Source: an uncultured Verrucomicrobiae bacterium
GTDB taxonomy: Bacteria; Verrucomicrobiota; Verrucomicrobiia; Opitutales; JABDGR01
NCBI GenBank assembly: GCA_963765205.1
Contig: CAVXVB010000008.1
Coordinates: 192,001 to 256,000 of the forward strand
Direction: 5' to 3'
DNA: 64,000 nt
The position numbers and the translations under genes were made by a program. Positions 9,299 through 17,529 of the stretch are shown piece after piece. The notes beneath the pieces are model-generated. The model was not told the origin of the DNA. It saw nothing but the letters and a program-made list of their open reading frames with translations, and ran no database searches. Numbering within the stretch: position 1 is the stretch's first letter; each line of letters begins with the position of its first letter.

Positions 9299-9526
9299 GT
9301 TTGCACGACAACCAGCACAAAGGCTCCGGAATCCGGCGAAACGTTGCCTTCGACTGAACTGCGGAGGAGTGCGGGGACTTGCGGCTCCGGCCACAGTAAA
9401 AAAAGCTCAACGGAAGCGAGTAGACTACCGTCGTGCTAACTGCCTTGCGGTAAAAACATAAGCCCCATCGAACGTTTTATCAAGTGCTTATACCTTATTT
9501 ATACAATCATAATGGGACTTATATAC

Positions 9527-9554
9527 TTGACAGTTAAAGAATCTGTGGTATATT
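9527..9554 (+). promoter_or_regulatory. Putative sigma70 promoter of the transposase (probably leaderless transcript)
   Basis: TTGACA (9527-9532), 16 bp spacer, TGgTATATT extended -10 (hexamer 9549-9554). ATG follows 6 nt later. Confidence 0.6.
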
Positions 9555-9560
9555 GACGGT

Positions 9561-10514
9561 ATGAAGCACCAAACTCCATTCACTCCCCAGCCAAGCAGCT
9601 TTGATTTCCATGCGCTCGTTCCCAACGAGGATGCAGCACGCCAGCAATGGGCGGCGGCGCGCTGGCCTGACGGAGTGAAGTGCATCCATTGCGGGCACGA
9701 CAAGGTGTGGTCAATCAAGGGCGGTCGCGTCTATGACTGCAAAGCGTGCCGCAAGCATTTTACAGTTCGCACTGGGTCGGTTATGGAAGATAGTAAGTTG
9801 CCGATTAAAAAATGGCTCTATGCCATGTATCTGATGACGGTTTCGCGCAAAGGTATTTCTTCAATCCAGTTGGCAAAAGAGTTGGGCGTCACCCAAAAGA
9901 GCGCGTGGCATCTCGCCCATCGCATCCGTGAAGCGTGCCAATCTAAGGGGGTGATCACCGGCATTGTGGAGGCTGATGAAACTTATATCGGTGGCAAAGA
10001 AAAAAACAAGCACTCCGGCAAGCGCACTCATGCGGGCCGGGGTGGAGTGGGTAAGTCAATCGTGTTTGGCGCAAAGAGCCGTGAAAGCGGCGAAGTTCGC
10101 GCAATGGTGTTGCCCTGCAATGACAGTTACCGCTTGCACGGTGCGGTGGGTGAGACGGTTGCCAAGGGTTCTACTCTTTGCACGGATGACAACCGCGCCT
10201 ATCGTGGCATCAAGGGCTATCGTCACCGCGTGGTAAAACACAGCGCGCGGGAATATGTCAAGGGTATGGCGCACACAAACGGGATTGAAAGTTTTTGGGC
10301 CATTTTGAAACGCGCTTACATCGGAACCTTCCATAATTTCAGCGCAAAGCATCTTGCGCGTTATGCTGATGAATTTGCGTTTAAGGCCAACACAAAGGAC
10401 TTGCCCGCATTCAATGAAAGTGGTATCGGTTCTGGTATCACGGCTATCCGCCAGTATATAGCAGGCGCGGAAGGCCGTCGCCTCACCTATAAAGCCCTCA
10501 CCTCCCATGCCTGA
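9561..10514 (+). CDS. IS1595-family DDE transposase
   Basis: Zn ribbon CIHC...CKAC, HTH (GISSIQLAKELGVTQKSAW), catalytic VEADETY / TDD / HTNGIESFW. Confidence 0.95.
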   Translation: MKHQTPFTPQPSSFDFHALVPNEDAARQQWAAARWPDGVKCIHCGHDKVWSIKGGRVYDCKACRKHFTVRTGSVMEDSKLPIKKWLYAMYLMTVSRKGISSIQLAKELGVTQKSAWHLAHRIREACQSKGVITGIVEADETYIGGKEKNKHSGKRTHAGRGGVGKSIVFGAKSRESGEVRAMVLPCNDSYRLHGAVGETVAKGSTLCTDDNRAYRGIKGYRHRVVKHSAREYVKGMAHTNGIESFWAILKRAYIGTFHNFSAKHLARYADEFAFKANTKDLPAFNESGIGSGITAIRQYIAGAEGRRLTYKALTSHA

Positions 10515-10650
10515 AAAAACACCAGCGCAACCGATAAAGAATCCGCTCTTTGGGAAATACAACCAAGTAGTGAAGGCGGTAGCTACATATCAACCCCCAA
10601 AGAACCAACCAGAAAATAAAGTATCTTCTCCATTGCCGGCAAAGAAATAA
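10507..10650 (+). CDS. Small basic ORF (47 aa) overlapping the transposase stop
   Basis: MPEKTPAQPIKNPLFGKYNQVVKAVATYQPPKNQPENKVSSPLPAKK. Overlaps the tnp end and abuts the stop of the convergent gene. Confidence 0.45.
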   Translation: MPEKTPAQPIKNPLFGKYNQVVKAVATYQPPKNQPENKVSSPLPAKK

Positions 10651-11559
10651 TCACTCTTTAAGGTCGGTCATTTCATAACGGAATTTAGGTTCTCCATTTT
10701 TTGGAGTGAATATAATCTTGTTCAAAAAGGCCACCGCCCTTTTTGTAGTCAATTTATTCCAGTCTGCTAAAGTATCAAGTTTTATATCCTCTGCGATTTC
10801 TCCAAAAATAGCTTCTCCCGCATCTGGCCTAAAATCAAAACGCCACGAATCTACCATAGCCCCATTGAATACCCCGGGAAGTTGTATCGGTGTGCTTTCA
10901 GTGAGTGAAGAACCAACCCGCTCCCATGCTTCCTTGATTTGCGTTTGGGTTAAACTGGTTTGTTCCATTCCTTTTTCAATATCCATAGAAACATCGTTCA
11001 TTGCGAGTGTTTTGAAAAAATCACGCAAGCGCAACAATGTCCTGCCAGAAATTTTCAATGCGGCATTGGCGTATGCTTCATCATCAGTAGCGGCAGCACG
11101 AATAACGTTTCCAACTTTGCTGAATGCTCCTTCTAAATACTCATAAGTAAGAAGGTCAGTCGCGTTAGCAGGCGTAAGTTCTAGCCCTACAGAACCGCGT
11201 GGCAAATCTGTTAAGTAGAGACGCGCCTCCGTATCACTTCTGCGCGGGCCTCGTTCTCCAATCTGCCCATGAAATCCTGCGGAAAATTCAGACTTTATCA
11301 TTTCTTGATAAGGCTCCATTACGTCCAGTGCAAATTTCAATTCTATGCCGTGCGTTCCGTCAACGGGACTCCCGCTAAATGAGAGGGTTACGCTCTTTGA
11401 TTCGGGCGCATCCTTCGCTTCCTTTAATTTATTTTCCGCTTCCTTTATCCTTTGAGACCATTGATACTCCATGATAGGATGCGATTTAACACGGTCATAC
11501 ATTCCCTTAGCTTCGGCAAGCTGGGACATCCAATGCTGTCTCATAGAATGGGCGCTCAT
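10651..11559 (-). CDS. Hypothetical 302-aa IS passenger protein
   Basis: Long ORF in low-GC DNA. ATGA overlap with the upstream gene at 11556-11559. Confidence 0.85.
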   Translation of the reverse strand: MSAHSMRQHWMSQLAEAKGMYDRVKSHPIMEYQWSQRIKEAENKLKEAKDAPESKSVTLSFSGSPVDGTHGIELKFALDVMEPYQEMIKSEFSAGFHGQIGERGPRRSDTEARLYLTDLPRGSVGLELTPANATDLLTYEYLEGAFSKVGNVIRAAATDDEAYANAALKISGRTLLRLRDFFKTLAMNDVSMDIEKGMEQTSLTQTQIKEAWERVGSSLTESTPIQLPGVFNGAMVDSWRFDFRPDAGEAIFGEIAEDIKLDTLADWNKLTTKRAVAFLNKIIFTPKNGEPKFRYEMTDLKE

Positions 11560-12118
11560 TTTGAAGAATTAAGGAATTGTCTGGCTTCATTATCTGCCGC
11601 AAATGTGCCTAAGTCAACGCGAAGAATGCCTTTCCATACACCGTTTCTCCGATGGGTGAAGAGATTATGCCAATATCGGGACAGGTAAACAATCTCTTCT
11701 GGCTTAATTGACATATCTACAAAATAATGGTCAATATGATAACTCGACTTAACTGTATTTACATCTATTAGGGGTCTGCTGTTTGCAAAGAGGCTCGCCA
11801 CGAATGTCGGAGTGGGGGGAGTAAAAAAGGTAACAATATCCATATCGGTTGGTGGCCTCCTATCAATTTTCTCTATTTCCTTTAAAAACTTCCATCCAGC
11901 CATTGAAAGCCAGAAGTCATATTTACGTTATGAATTTGTTCACGGTAATCTAGCCATCCGTGTAATATAATCTTCCTTTCGGGCGAAAATCCAAACCTTT
12001 CGCACACTTCTTTGGGTGTAGCCATGTAGGGAGATACATCCTCCGGCTCTCTCGCATCTCCTTTATGCGGGGGCAGCACACCATTTTTGAAGTCAGGGAT
12101 TGGCACGGCGAGAACCAT
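11556..12118 (-). pseudogene. DUF6932-like, Pol-beta-type nucleotidyltransferase, split by a 1-nt frameshift at ~11885
   Basis: ORF 11882..12154 (GVLPPH...SPY...FQWLDGSF*) continues in the -1 frame as LKEIEKIDRRPPTDMDIVTF, giving a GS-x14-DxD NTase signature when joined. Start uncertain (12118 or 12154). Confidence 0.7.
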
Positions 12119-12349
12119 AGCCCAAAAGGCAATCCGCTCAATCGCTATTTTCATTATACGTCAGGTATATAAGTCCCATTATAATCGCCCTACCATTCCT
12201 TAACGAGCCGCAGTTGGGAATCCGGCCGATCAGGGGCTATTCGAAATGCCGCCGCATGCAGTTAGCCCGACCCACCGGCCATTGAATACATATAACATTC
12301 CCGTTTCCGCCGGCTGAGCTTCTGACCCAATTCGGCGGCGGTGAAAAAC

Positions 12350-12425
12350 TGGTGGAGCCGATGGGGCTCGAACCCACGACCTCCACAATGCCATTGTGGC
12401 GCTCTTCCAACTGAGCTACGACCCC
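12350..12425 (-). tRNA. tRNA-Ala(GGC)
   Basis: Reverse complement GGGGTCGTAGCTCAGTTGGAAGAGCGCCACAATGGCATTGTGGAGGTCGTGGGTTCGAGCCCCATCGGCTCCACCA. 76 nt, anticodon GGC, G3:U70 pair, encoded CCA. Confidence 0.97.
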
Positions 12426-13415: not shown

Positions 13416-14141
13416 ATGCCTAATGCCGCCATCATGCTGTGCGCGGGCCGGGCGGCGCGGATGCGCGGCGTCGTGGCCGACAAGGTGCTCGCCCTGCTCG
13501 CGGGCCGGCCCGTCTTGTCCTATTCCCTCCAGGCCTTCCTTGAGGCGGGTGTCGTAGATTATTTTATTTTTGTCGTCCGCGACGCCGCGCAAATGGCCGG
13601 CGTGACCGCGGTACTGGCCAAGACGGACACGCCCCTCGCCAAAGTGATTTTTGCGGCAGGCGGCGTTGAACGGCAAGACTCCGTGTTCCACGGATTGCAA
13701 AGCACACCTTCGCAATTTGAAAATGTCTTCATCCACGATTGCGCGCGACCGCTAATTACGCCCGCGAGTTTGCGCGCGCTCGCCGCCGCCGTTCAAGCCG
13801 ATGGTGCCGCCGTGCTCGCCCACCGCGTAACAGACACCATCAAACAAACCCCACCGCGTGCTGGAAAAAAAATGCGCCGCCTCAAATTGCGCGACCTCCA
13901 ACGCGAAACGCTCTGGGCGATGGAAACCCCGCAAGTTTTTGCGCGCGCATTAATCACGCCAGCCTACGCCAAAGTCCACGCAAAAAAATTGCGCGTGACC
14001 GACGATGTGGCCGCCGCCGCCCTCCTCGGCCACCCAACAACGATTGTCGAAAACCCCTCGCCCAACCCCAAACTCACCCACCCCGAGGATTTCGCCTGGG
14101 CGGAGTTGCTGCTGAAAAGAAACAAAATCTCACGAACGTGA
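13416..14141 (+). CDS. ispD: 2-C-methyl-D-erythritol 4-phosphate cytidylyltransferase
   Basis: CAGRAARM, GGVERQDSV, IHDCARP, ETPQVF, TDD, NPKLTHPED. Confidence 0.93.
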   Translation: MPNAAIMLCAGRAARMRGVVADKVLALLAGRPVLSYSLQAFLEAGVVDYFIFVVRDAAQMAGVTAVLAKTDTPLAKVIFAAGGVERQDSVFHGLQSTPSQFENVFIHDCARPLITPASLRALAAAVQADGAAVLAHRVTDTIKQTPPRAGKKMRRLKLRDLQRETLWAMETPQVFARALITPAYAKVHAKKLRVTDDVAAAALLGHPTTIVENPSPNPKLTHPEDFAWAELLLKRNKISRT

Positions 14142-14822
14142 AACGCCATTCAATCTGCCATCCACCAAATGTATCAACCGGTCGGCGATGTCGAGGATGC
14201 GGGTGTCGTGGGTGACGAGGACGATGGTGCACCCGGATTCCTTGGCGAGGCGCTGGATAAGATTGACGACCTCGCGGCCGGTCGCGCCGTCGAGCGAGGC
14301 GGTTGGCTCGTCGGCGAGCAAAATCGCGGGCCGGCCAATGAGCGCGCGCGCGATGGCGACCCGCTGTTTTTGCCCGCCGGAGAGGTGGCTCGGGTGCTTT
14401 TCGCTGTGCTCCTCGATGCCGACGCGCCGCAACAATTCCAAGGCGCGCGCGCGGGAACTCGCGCCCGTTTCGCCGGGGTCAAAACTCAGGGGCAACTGGA
14501 CGTTCTGGCAGACCGTGAGGGCCTCGATCAAATGATGCGCCTGGAAAATAAAGCCGATTTTGCGCCGCAGGGCCACCAGCTCGCGCGGGCGCGCGCCGGA
14601 CAACTCCTGGCCATCCACCACGATACTCCCCTGTTGCAAGGCCCGCTGTCCGCCGATCAGCTTGAGCAGCGTGGTTTTGCCCGAGCCGGACGGCCCCATG
14701 ATCAGGCAAATTTCCCCGCACGCAAATTCCGCGCTGACGCCATGCAGCACCTCCTTGCTTGCCAGCCCTTCGACAAACGAGTGGTGCAGGTCTTTGACCT
14801 CAATGATGGGTGGGCCTGGCAT
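14130..14822 (-). CDS. ABC transporter ATP-binding protein (DevA-like)
   Basis: Walker A GPSGSGKTT, LSGGQKQRVAIARAL, ILLADEPTASLD, VTHD. Downstream of devB/devC-like genes. Confidence 0.92.
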   Translation of the reverse strand: MPGPPIIEVKDLHHSFVEGLASKEVLHGVSAEFACGEICLIMGPSGSGKTTLLKLIGGQRALQQGSIVVDGQELSGARPRELVALRRKIGFIFQAHHLIEALTVCQNVQLPLSFDPGETGASSRARALELLRRVGIEEHSEKHPSHLSGGQKQRVAIARALIGRPAILLADEPTASLDGATGREVVNLIQRLAKESGCTIVLVTHDTRILDIADRLIHLVDGRLNGVSRS

Positions 14823-14830
14823 GGGGGAGG

Positions 14831-14965
14831 AAGTTTCAGGTTTCGAGTTTTCGGTTTTCAGTTTTCGGATGGCTAAAACGATTTTGAACGGGATTTGGAT
14901 TGGTCAATCTGGCCCATGAGGCTGGGGATTGGGCTTCTTAATTCTTAATTCATAATTCTTAATTA
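14831..14965. repeat. Short tandem repeats (GTTTTCG/GTTTCGA-like and TTCTTAA heptamers) between the devC- and devA-like genes
   Basis: gtttcaggtttcgagttttcggttttcagttttcgg and ttcttaattcttaattcataattcttaatt. Confidence 0.7.
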
Positions 14966-16168
14966 AACGATATCCGCCGGGTTGGCGCGGCGGAGCTTGC
15001 GGGTGGCCAGCGCGCCGGCCAGCAGGCACATGAAAAGCGACAGCCCAAACACCAGCGCGACGTTGCGGCCGGTCAGGTGGGCGGGCATATGCCCGTAAAC
15101 GCGCGTGGCCCAATACAGCCCGGCCGCCAGCCCCAACCCGGGCACAAAACCAGACACCGACAGGATGGCCGATTCCTGGAGCACCAGGCGGATGAAATAG
15201 CCGTCGGTGAAGCCGATGGCCTTGAGCGTGGCGTATTCGGGCAGGTGGTCCGTCACGTCCGTGTATAATATTTGATACACAATGACCGCGCCGACGATCA
15301 AGGAAACCAGCATCGAAGCGGTGATGACGAAGCCAATGGGCGTGCGGTCGGCCCAGTAGCGTTCCTCTTTTTCCATAAATTTGCGGTAGCTGAGCACGGC
15401 CACATCGTCGGGCAGGCGCTTGTCCAGCGCCGCGGCCACGGCGTCCGCGTCCGCCCCGGCTTTAAGCGTGAGCAGGCCGAGGCTGATCTGGTCGGTGCGC
15501 GCGCCGGGCGAGATTTGCAAATACGTGTCCCGGCCCATGAGCAAGTTGCCATCGGCCGCGAAAGTGACGCCCATCGAAAAGAGGCCCTCGATTTGCACAT
15601 GGCGGTCGGCGATTTCGGAATCCACCTCGCCGTTATTGGCGGCGAGCCGCTGCGCCACCGGGCCGTAATCAGCGCGGGAAAGACGGTCAAACAGCACCGT
15701 GCTTTCGATCTTGAGTTTGTCCTGCTGAGCGAGGATTTCCGGGTTGGTGAAGGGTTGCTCGGTGGGGTCGAAGGCCAGGATAAAGATGTCGCGCGCGCGG
15801 CCGGTGTCGGGGTTTTTGAACGGCAGGCTCCCGAGATTCAGGCTGGTGGCGCCCGCCACGGCCGAGTCGCTCTGCGCCGAATACAGGCGCTCGCGCGGGA
15901 ACTCATGGCTGCTGCCCAGAAATTCATACTGCGGGCTAAAGAGCACCACATCGGCGCGCATTTGCTTGATGGGGGCGACGACCTGCGCAAAGAGCGCCGA
16001 GTTGAGGCCGACCTGGAACAACATCATCGCCACCGCCACCGTGATCCCGGCGACCGCCACGGCAAAGCGCTTTTTCTCCGCCACGAGCTGACGCCAAGAC
16101 AGCGGGATGCCGAGCGGAAAAATCCACTCTGGGAGCGGGCGGGTGAAGCGCCGGGCGGGCCGGGTCAT
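14963..16168 (-). CDS. ABC transporter permease (DevC/FtsX-like)
   Basis: IPLSWRQL...RFAVAVAGI and IVGAVIVYQILYTDVTDHLPEYATLKAIG, typical of DevC. Confidence 0.9.
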   Translation of the reverse strand: MTRPARRFTRPLPEWIFPLGIPLSWRQLVAEKKRFAVAVAGITVAVAMMLFQVGLNSALFAQVVAPIKQMRADVVLFSPQYEFLGSSHEFPRERLYSAQSDSAVAGATSLNLGSLPFKNPDTGRARDIFILAFDPTEQPFTNPEILAQQDKLKIESTVLFDRLSRADYGPVAQRLAANNGEVDSEIADRHVQIEGLFSMGVTFAADGNLLMGRDTYLQISPGARTDQISLGLLTLKAGADADAVAAALDKRLPDDVAVLSYRKFMEKEERYWADRTPIGFVITASMLVSLIVGAVIVYQILYTDVTDHLPEYATLKAIGFTDGYFIRLVLQESAILSVSGFVPGLGLAAGLYWATRVYGHMPAHLTGRNVALVFGLSLFMCLLAGALATRKLRRANPADIV

Positions 16169-17529
16169 GGGGCGAATTGCACTTTCACTTGTCCGTTGAT
16201 CAAGTTGGCGGCGGGCGCGGGATTGTCGAGCCGCACGCGCACCAACACGACGGGCTGGTCGGAGAAGACGGTTGGATCGGTGTTGGGCAGCGTGTTGCCG
16301 GCCACCATCGGCGTGATCGTCACCACTTGGCCGGTCAACCCATCATCGGGCAGGGCCGACCCGGTGGTCAGTGTTTTCTGGCCGAGGTGGACGCCCGGCA
16401 GGTCGTCAATGTAAACCAGCGCGTCCACATACATATCCGTCGTGTCGCCGAGCAGGAGCAGCCCAACCGGGCCGACCGCCTCGCCGGGATGCGTGAGAAC
16501 GGAGAGAACTTTGCCCGCGGCGGGTGCGCGGACTTCGCTCAAGTCCAGTTGCGCGCGCGCGACGGCAAGGGCGGCGGCGGCGGCATCCACCCGCGCCTGC
16601 GCGGCGGCCACGTCGGCGGCGCGTGCGGCTTGGACGGATTCGAGCAGCTGGCGGGCCGCTTCGGCGCTGGCGTGGGCGGCCCGAGCCTCGGCCTGAATGG
16701 GCGCGAGCGCGGCAGCATCGGCGGGCGGAGATTCCGTGATCAGCGCAGCTTCGGCCTGGCGGGTATGGATCGCGGCGAGGTCGGCCTTGGCCTGCAAATC
16801 CGCAATCGGCGCGGCGGCTTGCGCATCGGAGTTGAGCTTGGCGGCCTTGGCTTCCGCGAGCTGGGCCGTGGCAATGGCGCGTTCCGGGACGTTATGGGTT
16901 TTCGGAATGGCGTCGAGCTGGGCCTGCGCGGTCGCGACGGTTGCAGCGGAGGCGGCTTGCGCGGTTTGCAGCAAATTTTTCGCGATGTCCAAGGAGGCGG
17001 TGGCAGCCGCTTCGGCGCTTTTGGCCTCCTCGAGGGCGAGTTGGCTGGTGGTGGCGGCGAAGCGGGCGTTGGCTTCGGCGATGGCGGCGCGGCCATCCAA
17101 GTCGGCAATCTGAACCTGAATTTCCGCCGCGGCTTGCGCTTGGGCGGCCTGGGCTTCAGCCAAGTTGGCTAGGGCGACGCTTTGGTCGCGTTGGGCGGCA
17201 TCCACCTGGGCTTGCAACAAGGCCCGCCCATGCAACAGCGCGAGCAATTGGTTCGCCTCGACCAGATCGCCCTCCTTGACCAAAAGCTGGTCCACCATGG
17301 GCTGGCCCGAAACGCCCGCCGCTGCGGCAATCCGCAGCACCCCGCCGCGCGGCACAATCCGACCCTGCGCGGCCACCCCGCCGGAAAAGGGGGTCGTCGT
17401 GTTGGGCAACGGGTGCATATGGCCCACCCCTTGCATCCAACCCGTGACCGGCAGCAACAACCCCCCCGCCAGCAAAGCGCGGCGGATGGCTCTCCCCCAA
17501 GGATTTATTCTCGAAACGTGTAAGCGCAC
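16165..17529 (-). CDS. HlyD-family membrane fusion protein (DevB-like)
   Basis: VAAQGRIVP, LLVKEGDLV lipoyl-like half, long Ala-rich coiled coil, VRAPAAGKVL. Start uncertain. Confidence 0.85.
   Translation of the reverse strand: MRLHVSRINPWGRAIRRALLAGGLLLPVTGWMQGVGHMHPLPNTTTPFSGGVAAQGRIVPRGGVLRIAAAAGVSGQPMVDQLLVKEGDLVEANQLLALLHGRALLQAQVDAAQRDQSVALANLAEAQAAQAQAAAEIQVQIADLDGRAAIAEANARFAATTSQLALEEAKSAEAAATASLDIAKNLLQTAQAASAATVATAQAQLDAIPKTHNVPERAIATAQLAEAKAAKLNSDAQAAAPIADLQAKADLAAIHTRQAEAALITESPPADAAALAPIQAEARAAHASAEAARQLLESVQAARAADVAAAQARVDAAAAALAVARAQLDLSEVRAPAAGKVLSVLTHPGEAVGPVGLLLLGDTTDMYVDALVYIDDLPGVHLGQKTLTTGSALPDDGLTGQVVTITPMVAGNTLPNTDPTVFSDQPVVLVRVRLDNPAPAANLINGQVKVQFAP

Follow-up and report, generated by a model that had tools for sequence, protein, structure and literature searches.

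A DUF6932 nucleotidyltransferase and its partner on an IS1595 transporter element: a pair often embedded in type I restriction-modification loci and a putative distant sister of PDC-M63

The 64,000-nucleotide stretch of DNA analysed here (the window; contig CAVXVB010000008.1 of an uncultured Verrucomicrobiae bacterium) contains a transporter insertion sequence (tIS) of the IS1595 family, an element of a known kind, which carries a small nucleotidyltransferase (NTase) gene assigned to the DUF6932 family and, downstream of it, a partner gene. An earlier note, made from the letters of the window, had proposed that the two genes form an undescribed mobile anti-phage or toxin-antitoxin module. New here are the embedding of homologous pairs in type I restriction-modification (RM) loci, a lopsided decay of the two genes and the predicted fold of the partner with its likeness to DUF6575. 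We tentatively read the pair as an abortive-infection module of the toxin-antitoxin type, in which the NTase would be the toxic half and the partner would restrain it and sense infection, a reading to which we give somewhat less than even confidence. The copy in the window itself is probably disarmed, a recent pseudogene.

The pairing seen by the earlier note holds well outside the window, since both genes were found to co-occur strictly across genome, metagenome and viral loci. Decay was counted in two sets: 79 loci from genomes, retrieved with the partner, and the best 80 of 533 from metagenomes, retrieved with the NTase. In the genome set both genes were intact at 58 loci, the NTase alone was broken or missing at 8 (among them L017, which the script had counted as cut and which was reassigned by eye), the partner alone was broken at 1, both were damaged at 5, and 7 were cut by a contig end. 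The metagenome set yielded 59 intact pairs, 17 loci where the contig stopped inside the partner or ahead of it, 2 with only the NTase lost, 2 with both genes damaged and 0 with only the partner lost. An intact pair was present at each of the 17 viral loci found by the NTase, 10 of which are near-copies of a single prophage, and five of six plasmid NTase matches lay on records also matched by the partner; at the sixth, L208, a transposase-like fragment (label by eye) stood in the partner's place. A 4-base gene overlap was present in 63/82 pairs. Pooled, NTase-only and partner-only losses stood at 10:1 against a length expectation of 0.38:0.62 (length-weighted binomial p 4e-4, or 1.7e-3 with L208 included), a ratio that errors of assembly, polar effects and unequal collections may have skewed. 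The window and genome G328 provide two more NTase-only losses, which were left out of this count. As the partners at the loci concerned are at most 76% identical, we treat the NTase losses as separate events. The pattern is compatible with toxicity of the NTase or with a partner that serves a purpose by itself, and is at odds with toxicity of the partner.

Enrichment in defence islands, a prospect raised in the earlier note, was borne out by a PADLOC scan of homologous loci against 20 controls, taken as evenly spaced stretches of the genome of the window (G000). The scan, run at E 1e-10 with heuristic picks of open reading frames (ORFs), covered 42 of the 58 loci that had 3.5 kb of sequence to either side; tallies were read by eye. 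A PADLOC match lay within 3.5 kb at 34/42 loci as compared to 7/20 controls, where the matches were mostly generic helicases, ATPases and methylases. Type I RM genes were found within the same distance at 26/42 loci, and on both sides at 16/42, against 0/20 controls. Fisher tests gave p values of 6e-4 for any match and 9e-7 for type I RM, the significance being inflated by kinship among the loci. Genes of CBASS, Avs2, SIR2-HerA, DarG, Druantia and AbiL also occurred near homologous loci. Position between type I RM genes predicted defence systems that were then confirmed, according to the accessible part of 10.1101/2024.01.29.577857.

The label 'undescribed' does not hold for the pair: weak matches link its two genes to those of PDC-M63, a candidate already catalogued in PADLOC, and to PHROG families 9194 and 18731. 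PDCs are predicted systems, proposed because their genes lie embedded in loci of BREX, DISARM or type I RM (10.1101/2024.01.29.577857, in its accessible part). PDC-M63AB, predicted and unvalidated, likewise consists of two adjacent genes embedded in type I RM loci, and its deletion in native E. coli revealed no defence activity in the single published test, as far as the accessible portion of the source tells. Only one study naming PDC-M63 turned up, and DUF6932 was not found named in the literature; further mentions of either may exist in closed supplements and subscription papers. The window NTase half matched PDC-M63A at E 8.9e-6 and 47/47 intact NTase homologs did so at 1e-3 (best 3.8e-15), the models covering 133-152 positions where NTases of the window family have 184 residues. 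The window partner reached only E 0.006 against PDC-M63B, any single PDC-M63B model matched at most 2/148 partner homologs at 1e-3, and a match was absent in G434 and G435, which both hold the pair. The sole PDC-M63B match among 351 genomes, the solo homolog L240, aligned full length with the partner profile in hhalign (237 columns, 92% probability). Since the partners rarely match PDC-M63B yet their profile aligns over the full length of L240, we describe the pair, judging from sequence, as a putative distant sister of PDC-M63AB, short of a shown member. The window copy further differs from PDC-M63AB in being borne by an insertion sequence and broken.

The assignment of the first gene to DUF6932 comes from PF22014, which the two halves of the window gene matched at 48.2 and 43.2 bits (cut-off 27) and the intact homolog L020 at 108.6 bits. 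All three matched PF22014 only, and in the same library a neighbouring gene did match PF08843. The motif recognized by the earlier note is present, with 13 residues between GSF and DMD, and the two halves also retain a third Asp and the motif at the C-terminus. In 94/94 intact homologs G73-S74-F75, D89, D91 and D127 are invariant, and the window halves keep the GS motif, the DxD and the third carboxylate. The best structural matches of the NTase model were mostly Pol-beta NTases, weak but consistent support for the NTase-like fold that the note had anticipated. We regard the protein as a putative member of the Pol-beta superfamily, with nucleotidyl transfer as its predicted activity. In the window the gene is split at about 11885 within a run of five T, the halves covering profile positions 2-75 and 77-183; the 3' part lies within a 115-residue ORF (11556-11903), and the start used by the homologs corresponds to a position near 12106. 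Both broken halves recur on a separate short-read contig, and the break is probably genuine. Because this one-base frameshift is probably real, the mobile system of the earlier note is most likely inactive in the window copy.

The partner gene of the window is intact, and its product has an 89% identical relative. Its predicted fold comprises a helical hairpin (residues 1-54), an alpha/beta core (about 55-217) and an OB fold (220-302), so that the structure model supports the OB-like C-terminus suggested earlier. Conserved positions are mostly G, F and L, plus S123, R173 and R214, with few that look polar or catalytic. The best viral match of the model was a DUF6575 protein (E 7.6e-14, TM 0.39; Atlas 0.89), which the window partner resembles in structure; PMC9519451, in its accessible part, names DUF6575 as one of the domains present in validated defence systems of E. 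coli. The scans run gave no match to a HEPN, AbiEi or CBASS effector family, in line with the earlier note, which by eye had matched the partner to none of these effectors. PDC-M32A, possibly a relative of the partner, was weakly matched by 15/148 partners, the profile match being limited to the OB region at 11% probability, and in the PDC-M32A loci that were read this gene is followed by one for a 122-residue protein without a match to the NTase profile. That small protein (L241, L243, L244, L247) had no Pfam or PDB match; by eye, we take it to recall ADP-ribosyltransferase-type toxins. At L066, L160 and L161 an ORF of 136 residues that looks similar is found downstream of the pair. At L097:1300-2945 (G190) a short DUF6932 gene (148 residues) is followed by a long ORF with an OB-like beta end, which the partner profiles did not detect and which may represent a third kind of partner at greater distance.

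The IS1595 transporter has picked up a low-GC cassette of two genes, whose NTase has probably acquired its frameshift since then. In the mechanism that we propose for intact pairs, the DUF6932 NTase would be a toxic effector that transfers nucleotides to an essential target, with tRNA ends as a first guess by analogy with MenT/TglT and AbiEii; NTase toxins with tRNA as their target have been described in the accessible parts of PMC8610362 and 10.64898/2026.01.19.700257. The 300-residue partner, translated from the overlapping start, would hold the NTase off and act as a sensor, its OB domain binding nucleic acid or a phage product; infection would then release the NTase and arrest the cell. 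By analogy this proposed logic is common to AbiE/MenAT, where a DUF1814 NTase toxin is restrained by a co-encoded antitoxin. Here, however, the NTase is of DUF6932 and not of AbiEii/DUF1814, its gene comes first, and the window partner lacks an AbiEi or HTH family match and ends in an OB fold. In a bolder version, which we consider quite unlikely, the pair would be a type I RM guard and a new class of abortive infection: an OB-domain sensor with a core of unsolved fold would detect phage anti-restriction proteins or restriction-derived DNA and let loose a minimal, divergent NTase toxin against tRNA or protein. The sensor scaffold would possibly be reused with other effectors (DUF6575, PDC-M32), and IS1595 transporters would carry such cassettes away from RM loci to stand on their own.

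The decay pattern is shared ground with a reading in which the partner alone is the working defence protein, a sensor-effector, and the NTase a dispensable accessory that modifies the partner or a phage product; the window copy may then still be active. Retention of the partner where the NTase is lost, the solo homolog L240, the intact window partner with its close relative and the model match to DUF6575, with that domain's occurrence in validated systems (PMC9519451, accessible part), all favour it. We nevertheless regard it as unlikely, as the partner conserves few residues of polar or catalytic appearance and 58/66 scorable partners still adjoin an intact NTase. The NTase losses bear differently on a polarity like that of HEPN-MNT (HepT/MntA), to which the proposed NTase toxin would, by analogy, be opposite. 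There the partner would be the toxin and the NTase an antitoxin that AMPylates and silences it. Both systems have a small stand-alone Pol-beta NTase, the MNT antitoxins 7ae9, 7ae2 and 7bxo headed the Foldseek list for the NTase model, the gene order fits antitoxin-first, and the conserved partner residues S123, T117 and Y295 could accept a nucleotide. Nonetheless, at ten loci, in the window and in G328 the partner has stayed intact although the NTase is lost; were the partner a toxin left unguarded, this should not be possible unless polar effects silenced it. The partner is also not recognizably HEPN: none of 148 partners had a Pfam HEPN match, and an RX4-6H motif was found neither in the window partner nor conserved in alignment A7. 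We judge this polarity improbable.

Minimal signalling of the CBASS kind, in which infection would prompt the NTase to make a nucleotide messenger for the partner, the receptor-effector, appears very improbable. The NTase of 184 residues is far shorter than the matched CD-NTase chains of 272-374; in PADLOC the intact NTases match only PDC-M63A, with no cyclase model matched by any of 47 at 1e-3, although the true cyclase at L046 does match one; and equally harmless losses would predict more breaks in the partner than in the NTase, the reverse of what was observed. A selfish addiction module devoid of an anti-phage role, for which RM loci, prophages, plasmids and insertion sequences would be mere insertion hotspots, would account for the patchy distribution (partner in 4/401 genomes of the phylum), for the presence of the pair on plasmids and viral contigs, and for the negative knockout of PDC-M63AB in the accessible part of its source. 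It would account less well for the position between type I RM genes at 16/42 loci, a pattern predictive of confirmed defence systems (10.1101/2024.01.29.577857, accessible part), and we hold it to be rather improbable.

The element that carries the window pair was confirmed as the IS1595 transporter described in the earlier note, with a transposase and passengers enclosed by terminal inverted repeats (TIRs) (Table 1). The transposase ORF is open and of full length, as claimed, and matched NF033547 (IS1595) at 197 bits (E 3e-58; cut-off 75 bits), in addition to two Pfam domains. Its acidic motifs at residues 136-246 are presumably the DDE triad, and we assume ISNwi1 as a candidate for the subgroup. 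The TIR score was reached by 0/500 mononucleotide shuffles, and the wider inverted-repeat arm extends over 36 nt with 83% match. A sigma70-like site (11/12 consensus match, 9527-9554; a consensus match only) faces the transposase, its -35 hexamer overlapping the left TIR. The passengers are convergent with the transposase and low in GC, as the note had seen, with a GC3 of 0.38-0.42 versus 0.79-0.80 in flanking host genes, and they overlap by ATGA at 11556-11559. The IS1595 tIS MTnSag1/tISSag10 and tISCpe8 share the IS1595 DDE transposase, TIRs, flanking direct repeats and passenger genes; their TIRs are 25 bp long as compared to 18 bp here, and they carry a resistance gene where the window element carries a defence-candidate pair (PMC5704250, accessible part). 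An IS1595 transposase was found at 0/183 homologous loci of the pair. Carriage by IS1595 is therefore a local event, and mobility of this kind is not supported as a trait of the family.

Table 1. Features of the IS1595 transporter element in the window
Feature	Position	Strand	Evidence or remark
Left 8-bp flank, probable target-site duplication	9506..9513	.	7/8 to 12178-12185
Left TIR	9514..9531	+	pairs with right TIR at 17/18
IS1595-family transposase, 317 aa, Zn ribbon and DDE domain	9561..10514	+	NF033547, PF12760, PF12762
Partner gene, 302 aa, intact; phrog_18731; distant PDC-M63B relative	10651..11559	-	predicted fold and profile matches
DUF6932 NTase gene, 3' part (DxD, third Asp, conserved C-terminal motif)	11556..11885	-	PF22014 43 bits, profile 64-142
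DUF6932 NTase gene, 5' part, ending GSF then stop	11882..12154	-	PF22014 48 bits, profile 1-60
Right TIR	12160..12177	-	pairs with left TIR at 17/18
Right 8-bp flank, palindromic, probable target-site duplication	12178..12185	.	7/8 to 9506-9513

The 8-bp flanks match as reported earlier, and they are likely a target-site duplication; this falls short of proof because the right 8-mer is palindromic and can be read as part of a longer inverted repeat. The element is inserted between a histidine-kinase gene and tRNA-Ala. In the same-genus genome G002 the kinase, tRNA-Ala and a downstream gene follow in the same order, with an interval of 818 nt versus 3505 nt in the window; the difference of 2687 nt compares with 2672 nt for the element plus one 8-mer, the spacer being too diverged for a base-level empty site. 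The tRNA-Ala(GGC) gene (12350-12425, minus strand) lies 165 bases from the right end, so the element lies near the tRNA gene and outside it. Farther downstream, at 14130-17529, are genes labelled by eye as ABC transporter ATPase, permease and membrane-fusion-like, and presumably DevCBA-like. G000 holds a single full copy of the element, and no element joints were seen in contigs of 4 public runs. At 9328 one base is absent in contigs of 3 public runs, and position 9888 reads A in contigs of 2; each may be a strain difference or an error of the window assembly.

The genome G000 holds a small fleet of transporter insertion sequences. Apart from the window element it gave 11 further IS1595-like transposase matches, several of which carry unrelated passengers of low GC and have terminal repeats of their own; at least five are elements with terminal repeats and differing low-GC passengers (L231-L235, L236, L239). 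L231 (C8, about 443.4-446.4 kb) carries RHH, wHTH and DUF6941 genes, L232 (C5, about 5.4-8.8 kb) a 310-residue, weakly proteasome-like protein, and L233 (C9, about 606.3-608.7 kb) a low-GC passenger, while L234 (C6, about 12.6-14.7 kb) has a perfect 8/8 duplication. Around L235 (C9, about 261.4-264.9 kb) HNH, Zn ribbon and weak DUF2971 matches were found. L229 (C5:125055) and L230 (C2:236739) open with the 13-base end of the window element and have DNA between this end and the transposase, which in L230 includes a low-GC ORF of 350 residues; a second end was found for neither. Among the homologous loci of other genomes, the recurrent prophage of L111-L119 and L121 places an intact pair beside a CI-like repressor (HTH and S24 peptidase), with an NTase substrate-binding (PF08780) gene next in line in three of the copies, and on a Bradyrhizobium plasmid (L001:5925-8757) the pair abuts an opposite-strand multiubiquitin / E2 / JAB-ThiF / DUF6527 operon.

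In summary, G000 shows IS1595 transporters carrying several unknown low-GC cargos, and one of these cargos belongs to a large family (1250 partner clusters at 50% identity) whose partner is mostly missed by PADLOC models. If the polarity proposed here, with a toxic NTase restrained by its partner, is true, DUF6932 would be a family of NTase toxins outside AbiEii/MenT, like MNT antitoxins in size and fold yet acting as effector, and the core of its regulator would be without a solved relative. The predictions made at the level of the family give a concrete test of an unvalidated PADLOC candidate, using intact homologs.
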